Sequence record: PZ445410.1
Direction: 5' to 3' (one strand)
DNA length: 51,474 nucleotides
Source of the DNA: a phage
The position numbers and the translations under genes are program-made. Below the pieces are notes generated by a model. The model was not told the DNA's origin. It was given only the letters and a program-made list of their open reading frames with translations, and did not search any database. Shown here piece after piece: positions 2,063-49,480 of this stretch; the first letter of the stretch is position 1; each line of letters begins with the position of its first letter.

Positions 2063-2653
2063 ATGAAGCGAGACATTATCATCCTTAACGGACCGCCAGG
2101 AGTTGGCAAGGATACGCTTGCGGCATACTTAACTGGCCATCGTTACGCAGCCGTTAAAGCGTCGTTTAAGCAACCGATGTTTGATATTGCATTCTCCATG
2201 CTTGGCGTTTACCTATATGACGAGTTCATTGATCTGTATAACGACCGCGAGCAGAAAGAAAAGCCTCAAGCAATCTTGCAAGGCAATTCGCCTCGCAAGT
2301 TCATGATCTGGATTAGCGAAGAAGTCATGAAGCCAGCTTTTGGCGAGCAATATTTCGGAAATCGCATGGTTGAGCAAGTACACGAGATGTACAGAGATTT
2401 GGCTGTTGTAATTAGTGATGGCGGATTCCCTGAAGAAATCAAGCCGCTCGTTAAGGCAGGCCATGAAGTTCACATTTGCCGACTGCATCGCGAAGGATTC
2501 ACGTTTGATGGCGATTCGCGAAACTATATTGACCTGAGCGGATACCATCACCGAGTCAAGCATTACGACTTCACAATGATTGATGGCGAGCCAGAAAAGA
2601 CTGTTGACGAGATCATCAAAACGGTGCAGTGGAAACACACAAAGATTGAATAG
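2063..2653 (+). CDS. P-loop nucleotide kinase (T4 gp1 dNMP kinase-like)
   Basis: Walker A GPPGVGKDT near N-terminus; GKDT..A..Y.AVK pattern resembles dNMP kinase as I recall it; start chosen at internal ATG with GGAG RBS. Confidence 0.5.
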   Translation: MKRDIIILNGPPGVGKDTLAAYLTGHRYAAVKASFKQPMFDIAFSMLGVYLYDEFIDLYNDREQKEKPQAILQGNSPRKFMIWISEEVMKPAFGEQYFGNRMVEQVHEMYRDLAVVISDGGFPEEIKPLVKAGHEVHICRLHREGFTFDGDSRNYIDLSGYHHRVKHYDFTMIDGEPEKTVDEIIKTVQWKHTKIE

Positions 2654-5328: not shown

Positions 5329-5357
5329 TTGACAACGATTTCCTGATTGGTTAGCAT
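5329..5357 (+). promoter_or_regulatory. sigma70-type promoter (TTGACA, 17 nt, TAGCAT)
   Basis: Near-consensus -35 and -10 with 17-nt spacer. Confidence 0.5.
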
Positions 5358-5852: not shown

Positions 5853-6088
5853 GTTCTGTAATTATTGGTTTGGTTGCTTTAATCATTGGTGTTCTAATCG
5901 GCTTTGTTGCTGTATCTTTCGTGGTGGCTGTCGGTGTTCGCTATAAGTCAAAAAAAGGTGAATTTGCTTTAGCGTTTTGGGATGAAGAACAGAAAGTTTG
6001 GCAGGTTCGCGGTCACTATTTATCAATCGGTGGCAGGATTCACAGCACTATGAAGACAAATCCAGAAAAAGTAAAATACAAGTATTGA
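5849..6088 (+). CDS. membrane protein (79 aa, one TMD)
   Basis: IIGLVALIIGVLIGFVAVSFVVAV hydrophobic stretch. Confidence 0.5.
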   Translation: MSSVIIGLVALIIGVLIGFVAVSFVVAVGVRYKSKKGEFALAFWDEEQKVWQVRGHYLSIGGRIHSTMKTNPEKVKYKY

Positions 6089-6094
6089 ACAACT

Positions 6095-6118
6095 ACCCGC
6101 CAAATGGCGGGTTTTTTA
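6095..6118 (+). terminator. intrinsic terminator
   Basis: CCCGCC-AAAT-GGCGGG then TTTTTT. Confidence 0.55.
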
Positions 6119-6168
6119 TTGCCTGCAATTTGTCTATAATGAGGCTTTGTTATAAAGGAGGGCGCATT

Positions 6169-6690
6169 ATGGCTAAAAACGTTGAGCCAGCAGTAAAGGC
6201 TTGCAATTTTAAAAAACTATATAATAAGAAATATGGCGATATAGCAAAAATGACAAAGGCGCACAAGTACACGCCGGAGCAGGTATTTGATCTGGCTGTT
6301 CGTTACTTTACGTGGGCTGAGGAAAACCATATACAGGCTGCGGAAACGGCATCCTTTCAGGGTGACGTATACGAAAGCAAGATTCACAAGCCGCGCGTGT
6401 TCACCTTAAACGGATTCCGATTATTCGCTGGCCTTTCTGCTTCCGTGCTTGAAAAATGGCGACGTGAGCCAGGATTCAGCGATGTTATGGACTTTATCGA
6501 CGGCGTTGTTTACGAGCAAAAATTCCAGCTTGCCGCAAACAATATTGTTAACGCCGGATTCATTGGTAAAGAGATCGGCATTGAAAAGCCAGCTACCGTT
6601 ACCATTGAGAATAACACAAGCGCCAGCGTTGACGCTGTAACGGCGGAGGAAGTCAAAGAGGCGGTAATTGACATTCTGGAGAAGATATAA
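6169..6690 (+). CDS. terminase small subunit (putative)
   Basis: 173-aa ORF immediately upstream of and overlapping the large terminase; AAAGGAGGG RBS; track N-terminal extension rejected. Confidence 0.55.
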   Translation: MAKNVEPAVKACNFKKLYNKKYGDIAKMTKAHKYTPEQVFDLAVRYFTWAEENHIQAAETASFQGDVYESKIHKPRVFTLNGFRLFAGLSASVLEKWRREPGFSDVMDFIDGVVYEQKFQLAANNIVNAGFIGKEIGIEKPATVTIENNTSASVDAVTAEEVKEAVIDILEKI

Positions 6691-8258
6691 TGCTGATTTG
6701 GGAAGACTTAACAGCGGCGCAAAAACGCGCCATTAAGGAAATGAGCGAATATTCATTCGAAAAGATGATCCGCATTTGGTTTCAACTTCTCCAGGGGCAA
6801 AGGTTCTTAGGAAACTGGCATTTCAGTTACCTATGCAGCGAAGTTGAAAAAATCATCAAAGGCGAGTCACAGAATGTAATTTTCAACATAACGCCAGGCA
6901 GCGGTAAAACAGAGATATTCTCGATCCACATGTCACCTTATGCGTCATTGAAAAGTAAGAAGGTGAGAAATCTTAATTTGTCGTTTAGTGATGGCCTTGT
7001 CCAGCAGAACAGCAACCGCATCAAAGAGATTATTGGTTCTCCAGAATGGCAGGAGCTATGGCCTGGAAAGCTGGCAAAGGCGAGCGCAAAGGATTTGATT
7101 GTAACCGATGGCGGCAAGGTTAAATTGCAAGTTAACTCGCGATCAATTGGTGGTCAGGTTACTGGTCTGCGTGGCGGCTACATGGACGATGGTTTTACTG
7201 GTATGTTGGTTCTTGATGATCCAGACAAGCCGGATGACATGCTTTCTAAGGTGAAGCGCGAAGCCGGACACATGCGCCTAAAGAACACGGTGCGATCGCG
7301 TCGAATGAAAGACACTACGCCAATTGTGATGGTTCAGCAACGTCTACACGTCAATGATTCAACATGGTTCATGACAAACGGCGGCATGGGCGGCATCCAG
7401 TTTAAGGTGGTCAGTATTCCAGCGCTCGTTACTAAGGAATATCGCGAAACTCTTCCTGATTGGTTAAAGCCTGAGTTTGATCGCGATGTTTTGTCCAGTA
7501 AGCCAGTGATGATTGATGGCGTTGCTCATTATTCATTCTGGCCTGCTAAGGAAAGCGCTGAGGAATTACTTGCACTTCGCAATGCTGATCCGTACACGTT
7601 CGCTAGTCAGTATCAGCAACAGCCTGTTGCGCTTGGCGGTAACGTGTTTAAAACAGAGTGGTTTCAGTATTACGGCAGCAGCGAGAAATGCACGCTACCA
7701 AAACCGGATCGCTTTGAATATACATTTATCACGGTTGATACCGCGCAGAAAACAGGTGAGCTTAACGACTACTCCGTGATCTGTTATTGGGGGATGTATA
7801 AAGATCGCGTTTACTTCATTGATGGTGTTCGCGGAAAATGGGAAGCACCAGACCTTGAGAATAATTTTGTTGCGTTCGTTAATCAGTGCTGGAAGCGCAA
7901 TAAAGAATGCGGAACGTTGCGAAGGATTCATGTTGAAGATAAGTCATCTGGCACTGGCTTGATTCAGAGTGCAGCGAAAAAAATCATGATCAAGATCAAT
8001 CCCGTTCAGCGCGATAAAGACAAGGTTACTCGCGCAATGGACGCAGCGCCAGTAATGCGCGCCGGACGCGTAGCACTTCCAGAATCGCATCCTATGCTGG
8101 CTGAGATACTAGCTGAAGTTGCGGCGTTTACATTCGATGATAGCCATCCTCATGATGATATTGTTGATAACATCATTGATGCGGTTAACATTGAAATGAA
8201 CATGGCAGATGATCCGGTTGGAAGAATGAAAAAATTGGCAGGTTTGCGGAACAAATAG
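6690..8258 (+). CDS. terminase large subunit
   Basis: 522 aa, GSGKT P-loop-like motif, directly upstream of portal. Confidence 0.75.
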   Translation: MLIWEDLTAAQKRAIKEMSEYSFEKMIRIWFQLLQGQRFLGNWHFSYLCSEVEKIIKGESQNVIFNITPGSGKTEIFSIHMSPYASLKSKKVRNLNLSFSDGLVQQNSNRIKEIIGSPEWQELWPGKLAKASAKDLIVTDGGKVKLQVNSRSIGGQVTGLRGGYMDDGFTGMLVLDDPDKPDDMLSKVKREAGHMRLKNTVRSRRMKDTTPIVMVQQRLHVNDSTWFMTNGGMGGIQFKVVSIPALVTKEYRETLPDWLKPEFDRDVLSSKPVMIDGVAHYSFWPAKESAEELLALRNADPYTFASQYQQQPVALGGNVFKTEWFQYYGSSEKCTLPKPDRFEYTFITVDTAQKTGELNDYSVICYWGMYKDRVYFIDGVRGKWEAPDLENNFVAFVNQCWKRNKECGTLRRIHVEDKSSGTGLIQSAAKKIMIKINPVQRDKDKVTRAMDAAPVMRAGRVALPESHPMLAEILAEVAAFTFDDSHPHDDIVDNIIDAVNIEMNMADDPVGRMKKLAGLRNK

Positions 8259-8284
8259 CACGAATCGACAAACCAATATATAAT
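8256..8284 (+). promoter_or_regulatory. TAGCAC-box variant (TAGCACGAATCGACAAACC) with TATAAT at 8279-8284
   Basis: TAG is the terminase stop; followed directly by a terminator-like hairpin. Confidence 0.4.
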
Positions 8285-8285
8285 C

Positions 8286-8312
8286 AAAGGCTGGTAAATC
8301 CAGCCTTTTTTA
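8286..8312 (+). terminator. intrinsic terminator-like hairpin (possible attenuator)
   Basis: AAAGGCTGG-TAAAT-CCAGCCTTT then TTTTT. Confidence 0.5.
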
Positions 8313-8326
8313 TTGGAGGAAAGATA

Positions 8327-9607
8327 ATGAGTAAATCACGAATCGTTAAGGCTGATGGCTATAACGAGATCTTTAAAGGCGAGAATTGCAAATCGCGAGT
8401 AGAGCAACCATTCTACATGCAATCAATGCCATACAAGACACTTGCTGACTTTTACGAAAAAGACGGCCTGGCAAAAAGGGTTATTGACGTAGTACCAGAG
8501 GAAATGGTTTCCCCTGGCTTCACGGTTGACGGCGTGGCAGACGAGGCAGCATTCCGTTCTTTGTGGGATGAGAAGCGATTGAATGCAAAAATTATTGATG
8601 CGCTTTGCTGGTCGCGTTTGTTTGGCGGATCTGCAATCATTGCTCTTGTTCAGGATGGTCGGGCGCTCAAATCACCTGTAAAACCTGGTGCCATGCTGGA
8701 AGACGTGCGCGTTTACGATCGTTATCAGATTCGCGTTGAAGCGCGAGAAACAAATCCCCGCAAGGTTCGCTATGGTGAGCCAGTGCTTTACACTGTAACG
8801 CCAGGCGGAGACTTGCCGGAATACCAGGTACACTACACGCGCGTTTGCATTATCGACGGCGAGCGGATACCTAACGCAAAGCGACGCAGCAATGATGGCT
8901 GGGGTGAGTCAGTTCTTAACAAGCGACTTGTTGAGGCTATTGTTGATTATAACTATTGTGAAACATTGGCAACGCAATTATTGCGGCGGAAGCAACAGGC
9001 TGTATGGAAGGCTAAAGGACTCGCTGACTTGTGCGATGATGAGGAAGGTGTTAGCGCGGCACGCCTGAGACTTGCGCAGGTTGACGACGAGGGCGGTGTT
9101 GGCAAAGCAATTGGTATTGATGCTGAGGATGAGGAATATGATGTTCTTAATTCTGACATCAGCGGCGTTGATTCTTTCTTGGAAAAGAAAATGGATCGCA
9201 TCGTTTCCCTTTCAGGTATTCATGAAATCATCCTGAAAAATAAAAACGTTGGCGGCGTTAGCGCAAGCCAAAACACGGCGCTTGAAACATTCTATAAGCT
9301 GATTGAACGAAAACGCATTGAGGATTACAAGCCTATCCTTGAATTTCTATTACCGTTCATCATTAGTGAGCAAGAGTGGAGCATTGAGTTTTCACCTTTG
9401 AGCGTACCTAGCGATAAAGATCAGGCTGAAATTCTGAATAAGAATATCGACTCAATCAGCAAGGCTATTGATGGTCAGTTCCTTGATGTTGAAGAAGCGC
9501 GAGACACGTTGCGAGCAATCGCCCCAAGCGTTAAACTAAAGGACACTAATAAAATCAAGCTGCCGGAGCCAGCGGAGCCGGAGCCAGGCACACAGGGGAA
9601 TGAGTAA
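8327..9607 (+). CDS. portal protein
   Basis: 426 aa; position after large terminase; acidic C-terminus. Confidence 0.7.
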   Translation: MSKSRIVKADGYNEIFKGENCKSRVEQPFYMQSMPYKTLADFYEKDGLAKRVIDVVPEEMVSPGFTVDGVADEAAFRSLWDEKRLNAKIIDALCWSRLFGGSAIIALVQDGRALKSPVKPGAMLEDVRVYDRYQIRVEARETNPRKVRYGEPVLYTVTPGGDLPEYQVHYTRVCIIDGERIPNAKRRSNDGWGESVLNKRLVEAIVDYNYCETLATQLLRRKQQAVWKAKGLADLCDDEEGVSAARLRLAQVDDEGGVGKAIGIDAEDEEYDVLNSDISGVDSFLEKKMDRIVSLSGIHEIILKNKNVGGVSASQNTALETFYKLIERKRIEDYKPILEFLLPFIISEQEWSIEFSPLSVPSDKDQAEILNKNIDSISKAIDGQFLDVEEARDTLRAIAPSVKLKDTNKIKLPEPAEPEPGTQGNE

Positions 9608-10371
9608 TGAAAGTGAAGGGCGTCGTTAAACAATGGCGCTTTCCTGAAGCAAGCGAGCGGCAATTTAGCCGCTCAATTCAGGAGGCAATTAGAGATCTTG
9701 TGGTTCTCATGCGCAAGCGAACAAAAGCGATGAAGTTTGACGCAACAGATAATGAGATCAACATCGCAGAAGATGAAATTAACAGCCTGGCAACTGACCT
9801 TATAGCTGGCATTGTTTCAGCTCTTCCTGCAATCGCGTTGACCATTTATAAATTCAATGCGAAGCAGTTTATCAATGTTGCCAAGTCAACTGGCGGAAAG
9901 GATAACACGGCGGTAATTGTTTTGATCGCGGTTGGCGCTAACGCTAACGAGGATTGGTATCAGACGCTATACGGTCAATGGCACGGGCTTACAGAATCAT
10001 CGCTAAGGAAGTTATTCACAAATATTGTGTCTGACTGGTCAACAAACATTCGCAATGCAAACTTTCGCGGAAGCAATGATAAACAGGTTAATGATCTTGC
10101 AGAAAAGAGATTTGCTGTTTATAGCTCCTGGGGTAAAACTAGATCAGAAAACATTATCGGCGCGTGGAATAGTCGCCTTATGCGCCAGCGCCTTTATGAT
10201 GCTAAGGTGACTCATTATTTCTGGCATGGAATGTTAGATGATAGAGAGCGCTTGCAGCATGTGTTATGGGAAGGTAAAAGAATAGCGCTTGATGCAATTC
10301 ATGATTTCCCTGGTGAGCCGTGGGGTTGCCGTTGCTGGGCGATTCCAGACTGGAATAATAAAGGAGAGTAA
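9607..10371 (+). CDS. head morphogenesis / minor capsid protein
   Basis: 254 aa directly after portal, ATGA overlap; assignment by gene order. Confidence 0.5.
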   Translation: MKVKGVVKQWRFPEASERQFSRSIQEAIRDLVVLMRKRTKAMKFDATDNEINIAEDEINSLATDLIAGIVSALPAIALTIYKFNAKQFINVAKSTGGKDNTAVIVLIAVGANANEDWYQTLYGQWHGLTESSLRKLFTNIVSDWSTNIRNANFRGSNDKQVNDLAEKRFAVYSSWGKTRSENIIGAWNSRLMRQRLYDAKVTHYFWHGMLDDRERLQHVLWEGKRIALDAIHDFPGEPWGCRCWAIPDWNNKGE

Positions 10372-12019: not shown

Positions 12020-12042
12020 GGCGCTCACTGAGCGCCTTTTTT
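12020..12042 (+). terminator. intrinsic terminator
   Basis: GGCGCTC-ACTG-AGCGCC then TTTTTT. Confidence 0.55.
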
Positions 12043-12504: not shown

Positions 12505-12532
12505 TTGCACGTTTAACAAAAAATGCTATCAT
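12505..12532 (+). promoter_or_regulatory. sigma70-type promoter (TTGCAC, 16 nt, TATCAT)
   Basis: Hexamers with 16-nt spacer; spacer contains a reverse-oriented partial TAGCAC-box (TTAACAAAAAATGCTA). Confidence 0.4.
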
Positions 12533-12575
12533 TGTGGCGTTACATACTAACAGCCTTTATATATGGAGGAAGAAA

Positions 12576-13550
12576 ATGGAAAAAGAAAAATTTGATCAGC
12601 TAGATGCAGATATTGTTTCTAGTTATCTGGCTACTCGCGGCGTTAAAGGTGATGCGTCCGATATGGGTATTTGGACCGCTCAAGAGCTACACAAGATTCG
12701 CTCTAATGCTTACGAGAAAGAGTATCCGGCAGGTTCGGCGCTTCGTGTGTTCCCTGTAACTAATGAGCTTTCTGATACTGATAAGACTTTTGAATACCAG
12801 ACTTTTGATAAAGTTGGTTACGCAAAAATTATCGCTGATTATACCGACGACCTGCCAACTGTTGACGCTTTAATGTCCAGCGAGTTTGGTAAGGTGTTCC
12901 GACTTGGTAACGCGTTCTTGATCTCCATTGACGAAATCAAGGCTGGTCAGCGTACTGGTAAGAGCCTTTCCACTCGCAAGGCAAACGCAGCGCAAAACGC
13001 TCATGATCAGGAAGTTAACCGCCTGGTGTTTAAGGGTTCAAAGCCGCATAAGATTCTTTCGGTGTTTGAGCACCCTAACCTGACAAAGATCGTGTCAACT
13101 GGCTGGTTAAGTGCTGATGAAAACACTAAGTTCCCGCAGGCGGCATCTGATGAACTGGAAAAGGCTATTGAAACAATTCAGACCATCACCAATGGTCAGC
13201 ATCGAGCAACCAACATCCTGATTCCGCCGTCTATGCGCAAGGTTCTTTCCGTTCGAATGGAAAACACCACTGAAAGTTATCTGGAATACTTCCAGAAACA
13301 AAACAGCGGAATCACCATTGACTCAATCGCAGAGCTTGAGGATATTGATGGCACAGGAACGAAAGGTTGCCTGGTATATGAGAAAGACCCGATGAACATG
13401 TCGATCGAAATTCCAGAAGCATTTAACATGCTTCCGGCGCAACCAAAAGATCTGCATTTCAAAGTTCCGTGCACTTCAAAATGTACTGGCCTGACGATTT
13501 ACCGTCCGTTTACGCTAGTGCTTATTACTGGCTTGAAAAAATCAGGTTAA
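12576..13550 (+). CDS. major capsid protein (putative)
   Basis: 324 aa, GGAGGAAGAAA RBS, own promoter and strong terminator downstream; assignment by position and size. Confidence 0.55.
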   Translation: MEKEKFDQLDADIVSSYLATRGVKGDASDMGIWTAQELHKIRSNAYEKEYPAGSALRVFPVTNELSDTDKTFEYQTFDKVGYAKIIADYTDDLPTVDALMSSEFGKVFRLGNAFLISIDEIKAGQRTGKSLSTRKANAAQNAHDQEVNRLVFKGSKPHKILSVFEHPNLTKIVSTGWLSADENTKFPQAASDELEKAIETIQTITNGQHRATNILIPPSMRKVLSVRMENTTESYLEYFQKQNSGITIDSIAELEDIDGTGTKGCLVYEKDPMNMSIEIPEAFNMLPAQPKDLHFKVPCTSKCTGLTIYRPFTLVLITGLKKSG

Positions 13551-13563
13551 TCGTATAACATTG

Positions 13564-13593
13564 GGGAATCCTTAACTGGATTCCCTTTTTTTA
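13564..13593 (+). terminator. intrinsic terminator
   Basis: GGGAATCC-TTAACT-GGATTCCC then T8. Confidence 0.7.
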
Positions 13594-16207: not shown

Positions 16208-16232
16208 CAAGGGGCGTTGCGCCCCTTTTTTT
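16208..16232 (+). terminator. intrinsic terminator
   Basis: GGGGCG-TTG-CGCCCC then T7. Confidence 0.7.
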
Positions 16233-16246
16233 GTTACTGTACAATC

Positions 16247-16289
16247 ATGATACACGATTCATAATCAATTCTTTTAACAAAAAGTGCTA
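16247..16289 (-). promoter_or_regulatory. TAGCAC-box cassette in reverse orientation (TATCAT at canonical spacing)
   Basis: Exact reverse complement of the motif 15 nt upstream of the G gene ATG; points into the 16208-16232 terminator. Confidence 0.3.
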
Positions 16290-16303
16290 TCAAGGAGAAA
16301 GAA

Positions 16304-16621: not shown

Positions 16622-16932
16622 AAAGGGCGGTTTACCTGTTTTATCAGAAACCGCCGACAGATGCAGAGCTTGAGGCTGTTGGCCTTACAAGGGCAGACTA
16701 TGAAGGAGAAGATCCGCCAGAGGTTATATTTGATGAAAGCATGATGCAATCATGGGATATATTTTGCGCAATGCAAACGCAATGGAGATGTTCTGGCGGT
16801 GGAGCTTACGGATTTGATTATAATGTCTTGCCTATGCTTTTTGAGATTTACAAGGTTGAGGATCGCGAGATGGCGCTAAACGACTTGCGAATCATGGAGC
16901 AAAAAGCACTTGAAATGATGCATTCAAAATAA
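16304..16932 (+). CDS. tail assembly chaperone G-T fusion via programmed -1 frameshift at A_AAA_AAC (16612-16618)
   Basis: -1 frame is open from 16579 to 16932; canonical X_XXY_YYZ heptamer 2 codons before G stop. Confidence 0.55.
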
Positions 16933-16953
16933 GCGCCTACGGGCGCTTTTTTA
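16932..16953 (+). terminator. intrinsic terminator
   Basis: AGCGCC-TACG-GGCGCT then TTTTTT. Confidence 0.6.
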
Positions 16954-19997: not shown

Positions 19998-20002
19998 TTC
20001 AA

Positions 20003-20027
20003 GCCGCCTTTGTGCGGCTTTTTTATT
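20003..20027 (+). terminator. intrinsic terminator
   Basis: AGCCGC-CTTTGT-GCGGCT then TTTTTT. Confidence 0.6.
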
Positions 20028-20058
20028 GATGATACAATGCACGAAAGGAGGTGCAATT

Positions 20059-22128: not shown

Positions 22129-22146
22129 TATAAAAGAGTCGCGCGT

Positions 22147-22174
22147 TGCGCGGCTTTTTTTTTGCCCGTATAAT
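22147..22174 (+). terminator. intrinsic terminator
   Basis: GTCGCGCG-TTG-CGCGCGGC then T9. Confidence 0.6.
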
Positions 22175-22208
22175 TCAACAAATCAAATAGCACAAAAGGT
22201 GAAAAAGC

Positions 22209-25787: not shown

Positions 25788-25794
25788 AAGCAAA

Positions 25795-25821
25795 GGGAGG
25801 CGCATTGCCTCCCTTTTTTTA
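25795..25821. terminator. bidirectional intrinsic terminator
   Basis: GGGAGGC-GCATT-GCCTCCC flanked by A-run and T-run. Confidence 0.7.
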
Positions 25822-27119: not shown

Positions 27120-27330
27120 AGCAACAATAGAGCGATATACATACAGATAAATATATATACATACATATAAATCAATAAGTTAGTAGTATATATATTTATA
27201 TTTGTTCTTTATTGTTATCTATGTTTTGTGTGATTTTGTGTGTCTGGTGATTTTTCTGTGATTATGTATGTGTCAGTGGTTGTGTGTGTCTATATATCTA
27301 TATCCGGCGCAAATTGAGGAACAAGAGAAC
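27120..27330. repeat. AT-rich, C-depleted iteron-like element, copy A
   Basis: Shares AAATCAATAAGTTAGT...TATTTATATTTGTT core and GT-rich GGTGAT/GTGAT word repeats with 49265-49480. Confidence 0.6.
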
Positions 27331-33062: not shown

Positions 33063-35017
33063 TATACAATTTCCCCCAATTGATGATCTGTTAATGCCTT
33101 ATGCCAGATCCTAAAGTTTCTAATGTGTCCAAACAAATGGCGCTCTCCAGTTCCTGTTTGTCCGCCAAACCTGATATTTTTATCTCCTGTTACGCCTATG
33201 TAATCGCAGTATGAATCAGACACTGCTATAGCATTGGTGACAACATGAAATTTGCCATCAGATTTTGCAATGCATCCAAAAGTGGATTTTTTTGCAAACA
33301 CATCAGATGCCGCGCTATTAATATATGCCCCAGCAGGCGTTGATAAACTCATGTATAATTTTCCACTTCCTCTATTTATTGCCGCAATTGCTGATTGACC
33401 AGTATTTGCAGCAGCTATATCCCAAACACGAGGGGCAGAATTTGGAGCAACATCCCAACACTTACTAACCTCAAGCAAAAAAGTAAACGGCAATTTATAT
33501 AGGTTGTTTTTTGTTGGAATGCTAACAAGATCGCTAGCTCTCGTTGTTGGCATTGAAGTTATAATAAATGACGATGCTGTATTTCCAAGTTCAATTTGCG
33601 GCGTAGCCATCGTTAACGTTGAATCAGAATAAAATGGTTCGTTGTTAATTTTATTAGTCATGTAAAATGCACAATTAACAGTGTCAACATTTGTATTGGC
33701 TGTATATGTCGCTTGATAATACATCCATTCGCCATCCTGTTCCACTTTAGCGGTTATAAGTGAAGTGTCTCCACTTACCGATGCAACCAAAGTATCAAGA
33801 TCCAAATAAGAATCAGCAGAAAATGTATCTACTCCATCAATAATTGTAGACACTCGAAGCCTGCATCTTGCTTTAGCACCTTTAACCCTACAAGAAAAGG
33901 TGAAACTTTCACCTGACACCAAAGGGAATCTATCGGCTGTAACAACTCCATGAACGGTATAACCTCCAGTAGTACCAACAATACTTTCTACAGGGGTGAC
34001 TGTAGCGTAGTTAAAACCACGATCATCCGTTCCGAAAGTTTTATTTAAAGAAGAATGAATAGTCCAAGAATCTGTTTTATTTGAGTTTCTTAGATAGTTA
34101 GTTCTTTGCCCTTCGATTAAAAGACCTTCTTTTTCAAAACGAGGTTCGTCAATCTCCGCAACAGTCAATACACCTGATTTGTTAATATAAGTTGCTGTTG
34201 AAGCGCGTGAAAATGTAACTACTTTATCTGTTGGCATAGTTATAACATCATTACCAACTGTTATTTTTTTGTAACCAGGTGCAAAGCCTGTAATCATCTC
34301 AAGAGAATCATTAAACGGTATCCACACGTCGGGCAGCGGTTGCAATAAATCTTTGTAAGGTTCTGCGGCCTGCCTTGCGTATTCCTCCGCTTGATCTCGC
34401 GCACTTTCAGCTCCTGCCTTTGCAGTGTTCGCAGCGTTACGCGCGGATTCAGCGCCAGACTTTGCTGTTTCAGCGCCAGTCTTTGCAGTGTTTGCAGCGT
34501 CGCGCGCGGATTCAGCAGCGGTCTTTGCAGTATCAGCGCCTTTCTTGCTGTTTTCTGCATTTGTTGCGCTTTTCTTCGCGTTATTCTCGCTAGTTTTAGC
34601 GGCCTTCTGGCTTGCTGCGGCCGCAGCAGCATCGCTCTTTACGTCAGCCTGTATCTGTTGAAGTTTATCCCAATCAAATGTTTCGATGATCTCAATGAAT
34701 CTGGCAAATTCAGTTTCTTTACCCTGGTAATATCGCAGTGTTTCAGCGACATCTTGCGCCAGGCCATCAACAGTTATTGAATCATGAAGCATGATCAGAT
34801 AGTTTGTCTTTGCTACAACAGCGCCGCCAGTAGTAATGGCGCGAATGCTTGTGTCGCTAATAACCTCAGTGATTACAGCGGCTTGCATTGGATTTGTTAA
34901 GAAAAATATTGTTGCACCAGGGCGAATGAGTGTTAGCTGTTCGCGCCATTTTGTGCCGTATCCAGTTATATAACCTTGCGCGTCCATTGACGCCTGTCCG
35001 GTTCTGTAAATTGCCAT
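33062..35017 (-). CDS. side tail fibre protein
   Basis: T7 gp17-like N-terminal virion-attachment region, Ala-rich tandem repeats, C-terminal lectin-like region; GGGAG RBS at chosen ATG. Confidence 0.65.
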
Positions 35018-36103: not shown

Positions 36104-36577
36104 TTAGCAATTAGTGCTTTCAGGTTTATACAGGAATCCGCCAGGTTCATAATCTGACATTCTTACCACTCGCAACATTTCACGCTTATCACATCTCTTT
36201 GTGAGCGGTTTGCCATTGGAATCAAATCGCAGGTCTGGACGACAGAATGATGCGCGATAGCCTTGACATCCATATTTTTTGTAATCGTTATGCACCTTTT
36301 GAGCGCCAGCGGCTGAAATCATACCGCGAACGCGCCACTGATTTACAGTTTGCTGGCTAACGTTAAGACGTTTTGCCATTGCTGACACGCTTCCGTAATA
36401 CTCAATAAGGATGTCAAGTCGCGCTTTTAGTCCGGCGCGCACTTCATCTTTTAAAACATAGTATCCCGTAGGGCGCTTGCGCTTCTTCTTATCCTTTCCT
36501 CTTCGAGTTCCGTTATTGCCATTAATTGTGCGCTTGTCAATCTTGCCTGTTGATACTGCGATTCGTTGCTCTTTCAT
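36104..36577 (-). CDS. HTH DNA-binding protein (Cro/YdaS-like)
   Basis: SVSAMAKRLNVSQQTVNQWRVRG helix-turn-helix; basic N-terminus; divergent from helicase gene. Confidence 0.5.
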   Translation of the reverse strand: MKEQRIAVSTGKIDKRTINGNNGTRRGKDKKKRKRPTGYYVLKDEVRAGLKARLDILIEYYGSVSAMAKRLNVSQQTVNQWRVRGMISAAGAQKVHNDYKKYGCQGYRASFCRPDLRFDSNGKPLTKRCDKREMLRVVRMSDYEPGGFLYKPESTNC

Positions 36578-49264: not shown

Positions 49265-49480
49265 AAGAACAAAATAAAATTTATATATATACCCATAAAA
49301 TCAATAAGTTAGTTATATATGTATTTATATTTGTTATTTACTGTTGAGCTTGTTCTATTGGTATATGGTGGGGTGGTATTGTTTGTGGTGATATGTATGT
49401 GTGATTGTATATTTTTTAATCAATGGTGATGTGTGGTGATTTTTGTATGTATATATATGGGTATGGGGCAATCCTCCGTC
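49265..49480. repeat. AT-rich, C-depleted iteron-like element, copy B
   Basis: Shares core with copy A; three GGTGAT words; about 110 nt with almost no C on the plus strand. Confidence 0.6.

Follow-up and report, generated by a model that had tools for sequence, protein, structure and literature searches.

A conserved −10-like hexamer adjoining the terL terminator at the terminase–portal junction of a T1-like phage: a possible boundary between late transcription units

The window analysed here, the whole 51,474-nt stretch of sequence record PZ445410.1, is the complete 51.5-kb genome of a T1-like phage of the Drexlerviridae (Tempevirinae, Hanrivervirus), and over positions 6000–10000 it shares 97% identity with Escherichia phage Henu8 and Shigella phage pSf-1. 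The subject of this study is the short junction between the large terminase gene (terL) and the portal gene, where a −10-like hexamer stands directly beside a terminator hairpin. The late genes occupy the + strand between about 5477 and 25787, with three small open reading frames (ORFs) followed by terS and terL and continuing to a J-like tail protein. Only 722 of the 20,354 nt of the late region (3.5%) are intergenic. The junction comprises the following features.

6690–8258, + strand: terL ORF, with stop codon TAG at 8256–8258
8253–8273, + strand: degenerate copy (17 of 21) of a 21-nt direct repeat (DR), matched to the family repeat aaATAGCACgaaTTGcTAAAA and holding the terL stop TAG
8256–8261, + strand: TAGCAC, the sole hexamer at the −35 position, weak (2 of 6 against TTGACA), 17 nt upstream of the −10 (weight-matrix scan)
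8279–8284, + strand: TATAAT, −10-like hexamer (sequence and conservation)
8286–8308, + strand: terminator hairpin, with 5′ arm AAAGGCTGG (8286–8294), loop TAAAT and 3′ arm CCAGCCTTT (8300–8308) (fold, annotation of orthologues)
8291–8293, + strand: predicted transcription start within the 5′ arm of the stem, at the 7th to 9th nucleotide after the −10
8306–8314, + strand: terminator tail, TTTTTT (8306–8311) then ATT, with TTTTTATT invariant in an alignment of 21 junctions
8315–8329, + strand: portal ribosome-binding site (RBS) GGAGG (8315–8319) and start codon ATG (8327–8329)

The initial annotation of this stretch had described TATAAT, a 9-bp stem, a T-run and the portal RBS in close succession, and direct inspection of the sequence found each of them at the position given. 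It had also described a motif variant starting with the terL stop codon. The motif is real and corresponds to the 17/21 copy of the DR, but the stop codon sits within the motif core and not at its start. The hairpin begins 27 nt past the stop codon. Its stem has 9 bp, five of them G-C pairs, and its loop 5 nt; a single nucleotide separates TATAAT from the stem, and the stem core begins 4 nt after the hexamer. The RNA of 8250–8330 folds at −18.8 kcal/mol (z = −4.25 relative to shuffled sequences), with −13.5 kcal/mol for the hairpin alone and −10.1 kcal/mol for the core stem. The T-run, which is common to other late terminators of the genome, has a T score of 4.76. The d-score of the hairpin, by a formula of the d'Aubenton-Carafa 1990 type, is +27; this value and the promoter frequencies of the weight matrix are to be taken with caution. 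Additional pairing around the hairpin, ATAAT with ATTAT or CCAATA with TATTGG, was discarded because it is not retained in T1 or in relatives bearing TACAAT. A 9-nt repeat, CACGAATCG, at 8259 and 8336, seven of whose nine bases are those of the DR core, is probably a chance occurrence.

The hairpin with its T-run can be assigned, with good support, as a canonical intrinsic terminator that is already annotated in relatives. The orthologous hairpin is marked as a rho-independent terminator in T1 (NC_005833, 10545..10573), SA32RD (2150..2181) and TLS (T30), at the same junction, in the same orientation and with the same build of G+C stem, T-run and portal RBS. The stem of TLS T30 is near-identical to the GGCTGG/CCAGCC of the window. 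These three records mark the terminator only, and the −10 hexamers of T1 (TATAAT) and TLS (TAAAAT) are neither annotated nor discussed there. The −10 set against the terL terminator is not annotated in the records of the relatives, and its conservation across the family is a new observation.

To follow the junction through the family, terL/portal junctions were gathered from IMG/VR contigs and from phages T1, TLS, Rtp, SA32RD, JulesPiccard and Klebsiella phage RCIP0042; the record of the latter comes without taxonomy and was taken as Webervirus-like. In the alignment of 21 junctions, the invariant columns are exactly the T, A, A and T at positions 1, 2, 5 and 6 of the hexamer, together with TTTTTATT after the stem. 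The bases from the stop codon to the hexamer vary freely. In the larger set, a [T/C]AnnnT hexamer ends 0–6 nt before a G+C hairpin core in 57 of 58 distinct junctions, although the force of this proportion is lessened by shared ancestry, which means that it does not represent 57 independent trials. The most frequent form is TATAAT (30 junctions), followed by CATAAT (9), TACAAT (4), TAAAAT (3), TATGAT (3), CATGAT (3), TAAACT (2), TATCAT (2) and TACACT (1). A2 and T6 are unchanged in all 57 hexamer-bearing junctions, and these are the positions that sigma-70 reads most strictly.

The hairpin has followed a different course. At least seven different stems are found at the junction (GGCTGG/CCAGCC, GGCTGG/CCGGCC, GGCTGTC/GACGGCC, GGGCCA/TGGCCC, GGCTAGG/CCTAGCC, GCCCC/GGGGC and GTGGGCC/GGCCCAC), A-T and G-C pairs are swapped at the stem base across lineages, and loops of 3 to 7 nt occur. 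Between the window phage and its close relatives, only the loop differs. With the stem replaced or compensated while A2 and T6 remained fixed, the junction shows the pattern of a selected RNA hairpin beside a selected −10 element. The tail TTTTTATT is invariant in all lineages other than the Klebsiella-phage (Webervirus-type) group (L106–L117; L041, 1600–1650), where TTGAAA-17-CATAAT is followed by an 8-bp G+C hairpin, without a T-run, before the portal gene.

As a promoter, the junction offers a perfect sigma-70 −10, TATAAT, in the window and stronger elements in some relatives. The Webervirus-type group has a good −35 at the proper distance, the junction L079 reads TTGCTG-16-TATAAT, and TGATAAACT in the Rtp group can be read as an extended −10. 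Furthermore, the spacing of 17–18 nt from the −35 position to the hexamer is retained in the DR-bearing relatives. A promoter at this position is therefore plausible family-wide, the version in the window being of a "−10 only" kind. About a dozen canonical repeat-bearing promoters of the phage have a conserved C-A exactly 6–7 nt after the −10, which points to a start at the 7th base. By this analogy, if the hexamer fires, transcription would be expected to start at 8291, or at 8293 by the pyrimidine–purine rule, at the end of the 5′ arm. An RNA beginning at 8291–8293 folds at only −3.8 to −1.5 kcal/mol, compared with −13.5 kcal/mol for the full hairpin; with its predicted start inside the 5′ arm, the new transcript would be unable to fold into the terminator. 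The stem core follows soon after the hexamer (0–5 nt) in every hexamer-bearing lineage, so the relation of stem before start would be a general one.

The same layout is found in front of the major capsid gene.

12505–12556, + strand: capsid sister element, with TTGCAC (12505–12510), a 16-nt spacer with a reversed DR, TATCAT (12527–12532) and an imperfect, weak hairpin (12536–12556), before the capsid ATG at 12576

This layout is present in 69 distinct Drexlerviridae junctions (loci L127–L206), which have a good −35 (TTGACG, TTGCAC, TTGAAC or TTGACC), a 16-nt spacer and TATnAT. The spacer is the reversed repeat (TTTAACAAAAAGTGC), which also covers the start of the −10. In many lineages, Tunavirinae and Tempevirinae among them, a hairpin whose sequence varies lies 2–3 nt after the capsid −10, and the T-run behind it differs in quality. 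In Braunvirinae and the Webervirus-type group the order is reversed, the terminator preceding the promoter, and the SA32RD record annotates a promoter and a terminator back to back at this junction. A near-consensus promoter before the most abundant virion protein would not directly precede a terminator that kills its own transcript.

The terminator at the terL/portal junction is one of many in the late region. A strict scan of the + strand from 5400 to 25900 revealed nine terminators, compared with 0.44 ± 0.65 expected from 100 dinucleotide shuffles, and all nine lie within the 722 intergenic nucleotides. The other late-strand terminators are listed here.

6095–6112, + strand: terminator before terS, upstream boundary of the terS–terL unit
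12020–12036, + strand: late-operon terminator
13563–13586, + strand: terminator after the major capsid gene
16209–16245, + strand: terminator after the major tail gene (16209–16227), with TTGCGC (16217–16222) in the loop and 3′ arm, then 17 nt and TACAAT (16240–16245)
16931–16948, + strand: terminator after the tail chaperone gene
20001–20038, + strand: terminator (20001–20020) with TTGTGC (20010–20015), then 17 nt and TACAAT (20033–20038)
22140–22174, + strand: terminator (22140–22154) with TTGCGC (22146–22151), then 17 nt and TATAAT (22169–22174)
25792–25816, + strand: terminator closing the late operon

The first seven of these had been listed in the initial annotation and are all present; the one at 25792 is additional. 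All the late-strand terminators score positive by the d'Aubenton-Carafa-type formula, and the T1 RefSeq record has terminators annotated after the same set of late genes. Three of them, with longer spacers, share a further arrangement, in which TTGnGC in the loop or 3′ arm is followed by exactly 17 nt, including the T-run, and then by TAnAAT. TTGnGC-17-TAnAAT is kept at these three terminators in the window, T1, SA32RD and TLS (12 of 12 junctions), and the equivalent in Rtp and JulesPiccard is TAGTGC-17-TAGAAT. The tail promoters 16217–16245, 20010–20038 and 22146–22174 rank 42nd, 57th and 9th, respectively, in the weight-matrix scan. From its sequence, the late region looks like a chain of terminators with built-in promoters. 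The interleaving of promoters of the sigma-70 type suggests re-initiation rather than one antiterminated transcript.

We propose that two late transcription units meet at the terL/portal junction in a compact boundary, where a restart promoter is nested in the terL terminator. We would give this reading an even chance of being correct. Its terminator part is well supported, and we infer its promoter part from the conservation of the hexamer and from the parallel at the capsid gene. RNA polymerase arriving from terL would make the full 9-bp hairpin and, if the terminator is efficient, be released at about 8311–8316, within the stretch 8309–8318. This would keep the terminase mRNA apart from the head-gene mRNA, with the terS–terL unit bounded upstream by the terminator at 6095. 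TATAAT would serve the portal and head genes as the −10 of a promoter read by host sigma-70, with TAGCAC as a weak −35. Initiation at 8291–8293, in the last bases of the 5′ arm, would give an RNA that lacks this arm and is immune to the terminator, and the U-rich tail would become the leader of the portal mRNA up to the RBS. The terminator would then act on incoming transcripts only, and expression would be reset at the junction. Several terminators stand ahead of the capsid and tail genes, so re-initiation is needed; at this junction in particular a restart promoter is needed, as the gene before the terminator encodes a low-abundance protein and those after it encode more abundant ones. The element would be a compact variant of ordinary promoter and terminator punctuation, and not a new kind of system.

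Several observations weigh against a working promoter at this site. The candidate −35 elements, TAGCAC at 17 nt (2/6) or ATAGCA at 18 nt (3/6), are poor, an extended −10 (TGn) is absent from the window, and the −35 elements of T1 and TLS are no better. The site was passed over by a consensus promoter scan, there being no −35 with four or more of six matches 16–18 nt upstream. Perfect TATAAT occurs 30 times in the genome, counting both strands, which makes the window copy unremarkable by itself. In the −35/−10 weight matrix the site ranks 176 of 102,876, so that about 175 positions score as well, and this top-0.2% rank is due only to the perfect −10. The canonical DR promoters of the phage (see below) rank lower still, and the matrix therefore says little for this phage. 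One lineage, L119, is without the hexamer. TAnnnT is also found beside the stem of 17 of 61 other late terminators (28%) in seven genomes, often arising from TAA stop codons. The adjacency of hexamer and terminator is thus weak evidence on its own, and it is from conservation only that the hexamer derives its significance. The Webervirus-type hairpin, having no T-run, cannot be a standard terminator, and the hairpin may serve some purpose instead of termination or in addition to it. In the searchable literature, no mapping of 5′ or 3′ ends or of transcripts was found for any T1-like phage. A search for precedents of a start site inside a terminator gave one Mycoplasma transcriptome paper, which was irrelevant, and a search for RNA-derived contigs ending at the junction found the portal gene only on long genomic contigs.

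The simplest alternative is that the junction holds a terminator only, leaky enough to shape read-through from terL, and that TATAAT is a non-working AT-rich flank on the A-tract side, kept by descent or as an aid to termination. The strong terminator features, the weak −35, the silent consensus scan and the background of TAnnnT beside other late terminators are all in its favour, as is the judgement of the depositors of T1, TLS and SA32RD, who marked just a terminator here. An A-tract role does not, however, predict fixed positions 1, 2, 5 and 6 amid changing neighbours. Nor does it explain the good −35 of the Webervirus-type group or the identical layout with a near-consensus promoter at the capsid gene, and pure attenuation would leave the least mRNA for the most abundant downstream proteins. 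We consider this explanation quite possible, though less likely than the nested reading.

Lower in our estimation, and improbable, is a role of the hairpin in RNA stability or processing, in which it protects the 3′ end of the terL mRNA or marks a cleavage in the AU-rich stretch, with little termination. RNase E sites are usually found where a stem follows an AU-rich segment, the Webervirus-type hairpin has no T-run, and many promoters of the genome have inverted repeats that likewise lack T-runs. Against this stands TTTTTATT, which is invariant in the other lineages and shared with all other late terminators; termination requires it, whereas protection does not.

The initial annotation had raised, as one possibility, late transcription reading through the hairpins by antitermination, as with lambda Q. 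Under a Q-like or N-like scheme there would be one late transcript, a phage factor would carry polymerase through all the hairpins, and the box and DR would be its loading or pause site. The many terminators of the late operon, which runs in one orientation for 20 kb, fit this scheme, and so does the overlap of the DR with the core promoter here and at the capsid gene. In lambda, the Q-binding element of pR′ overlaps the core-promoter region in a parallel way, and pR′ is closely followed by the terminator tR′ at the head of a late operon with many terminators. The lambda transcript contains its terminator and requires Q, whereas in the window the stem precedes the expected start, leaving no promoter-proximal terminated transcript to rescue. 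No Q- or N-type protein is annotated in T1, Rtp, TLS or pSf-1. Ten candidate proteins of the window compared with Pfam and PHROGs, with many small proteins left unscanned, included no antiterminator, only a Cro/YdaS-like helix-turn-helix (HTH) regulator and a deoxynucleoside monophosphate (dNMP) kinase. Furthermore, conserved promoters are interleaved with the terminators, and T1 and TLS keep hexamer and hairpin without the DR. The suggestion of lambda Q-like antitermination is unsupported by these results, and we consider this explanation very improbable.

Least credible of all is a DNA operator, an inverted repeat to which a dimeric phage repressor would bind and so control the portal promoter. 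Operators are typically placed like this repeat, at −5 to +18 from the predicted start, and a Cro/YdaS-like HTH protein is encoded at 36104–36577, but the arms are wholly different between lineages, the loop varies from 3 to 7 nt, and G+C-rich stems with a T-run are the signature of an RNA terminator.

The 21-nt direct repeat of T1-like phages is aaATAGCACnnnTTGnTAAAA; the TLS study (PMC11447400) puts it about 76 nt before the start codon and leaves its function open. The genome in the window holds about 18 canonical copies before early genes, on both strands, and the canonical DR promoters are found at these positions.

363, 1348, 2650, 3995, 39109, 40150, 50385 and 50848, + strand: canonical DR promoters
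43414, 45582, 46258, 48125, 49002 and 27056, − strand: canonical DR promoters

In these promoters the −10 lies 37–38 nt after the A of ATAGCAC and is followed by a C-A initiator and a shared leader, CATCGAAACGA; after the hexamer at the terL/portal junction there is neither a C-A at +6/+7 nor this leader. The copy at 8253–8273 is of a "G-type". It shares its first 12 nt (AATAGCACGAAT) with the copies at 363 and 2650, and its ATAGCAC core is intact, with the TTGnTAAAA half degenerate (CGACAAAC). Like the family repeat it is placed in the direction of transcription at the expected distance from the next gene, 74 nt from its start at 8253 to the ATG at 8327. The spacing to the −10 is not the canonical one, the window hexamer being at offset 24 instead of 37–38. 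In the canonical promoters the box is upstream of the core promoter, whereas the degenerate DR of the window overlies the −35 and the spacer. Many relatives have a copy with 21 of 21 matches at this junction; TLS has none. The DR at the terL stop was probably inherited and, as judged from its sequence, is decaying in the window phage. A canonical DR promoter with its −10 at offset 37–42 (8292–8297, TGGTAA) was rejected, this position being unconserved in relatives.

Relative to promoters, the DR occurs in four positions (−49 to −29, −36 to −16, −33 to −13 reversed, and +6 to +26). It overlaps the core of both promoters with a start in the stem, lies upstream of the early ones and faces the late promoter at 16240–16252. 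An "A-type" copy (aaATAGCACaaaaGGTGAAAAA) at 22185–22205 is part of the 5′ leader predicted for the J-like tail gene, whose RBS it includes. In nearly every canonical DR promoter an inverted repeat, differing in sequence from copy to copy, either lies in the spacer or encloses the −10; on the opposite strand these inverted repeats resemble terminators (a hairpin, then GTTTTAAC). In Rtp (L037, 8426–8912) and JulesPiccard (L040, 2175–2681) an extra gene is located between terL and portal, with a canonical DR promoter from the terL stop at one side and the conserved hairpin at the other, an arrangement that resembles a cassette of promoter, gene and terminator.

Two promoters face each other at 16209–16292. 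The late promoter on the + strand (TACAAT 16240–16245, predicted start at about 16252) is opposed on the − strand by a canonical DR promoter (DR 16290–16270, TATCAT 16252–16247, predicted start at about 16240), which is directed antisense into the major tail gene. This face-to-face arrangement is conserved in T1 and SA32RD, and polymerase could occupy one of the two at a time. The pair may be an early/late switch.

The proposal for the terL/portal junction may be extended, tentatively, to the late region as a whole. Late promoters of the Drexlerviridae would be nested in terminators in two forms, one with the start within the 5′ arm (portal and capsid genes) and one with the −35 in the loop and the T-run in the spacer (tail genes). 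Within about 60 nt, each junction would then cancel the transcription arriving from upstream and fix a new level. As part of the same possible but doubtful scheme, the DR could be the site of a single regulator that times the early-to-late switch.

Tuning of stoichiometry by the hairpins, which the initial annotation had also put forward, is compatible with the data, and the strongest hairpins follow the major capsid (13563) and major tail (16209) genes. The position of these two hairpins recalls T-phi of phage T7, a terminator after the highly expressed structural gene 10 that sets mRNA ratios. The terL/portal terminator differs from T-phi in that it comes after a scarce product and ahead of plentiful ones.

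The late region of T1 has been described in terms of "transcriptons", modules flanked by terminators and with RpoD-type promoters (Roberts et al. 2004, as summarised in PMC11447400), which could not be confirmed in TLS by the authors of that study (PMC11447400). The proposed organisation shares with the transcriptons, as they are summarised there, the logic of many terminators with re-initiation between them. The nesting geometry, with the start in the stem or the −35 in the loop, is absent from the text of that summary.

The timing and balance of late expression in T1-like phages is essentially unstudied, and these phages are common laboratory contaminants and candidates for therapy. If correct, the nested organisation would explain how capsid and tail proteins are made abundantly from a terminator-rich 20-kb late operon with no known antiterminator. 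It would, in addition, offer synthetic operons a natural and very short part for insulation and restart. If the nested reading is wrong, the element is simply the already annotated terL terminator.

Further observations concern the surroundings of the late genes and the rest of the window. A sigma-70 match, TTGACA-17-TAGCAT at 5329–5357, ranks third genome-wide in the weight matrix and adjoins the first late-strand ORFs on their upstream side; by its sequence it is a candidate for the entry promoter of the late region. Some near-identical relatives (L122 and L126; 849–1361) have a gene for an HNH endonuclease between terS and terL, which the window is without. A pac site at the terL/portal junction was considered and rejected, as the T1 record puts the terminal repeat about 8 kb upstream of terS. 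Rfam gave zero family matches across the whole window. The Cro/YdaS-like HTH protein mentioned above, identified in the Pfam and PHROGs scan, is encoded on the − strand. Also on the − strand, the tail fibre gene contains at 34405–34530 a tandem pair of 63-nt copies with 83% identity, which encode an alanine/lysine-rich repeat. Finally, the non-coding segments 27169–27278 and 49298–49462, located 22 kb apart, are GT-rich blocks of short repeats (TGTGTGATT-like units) that are 71% alike.

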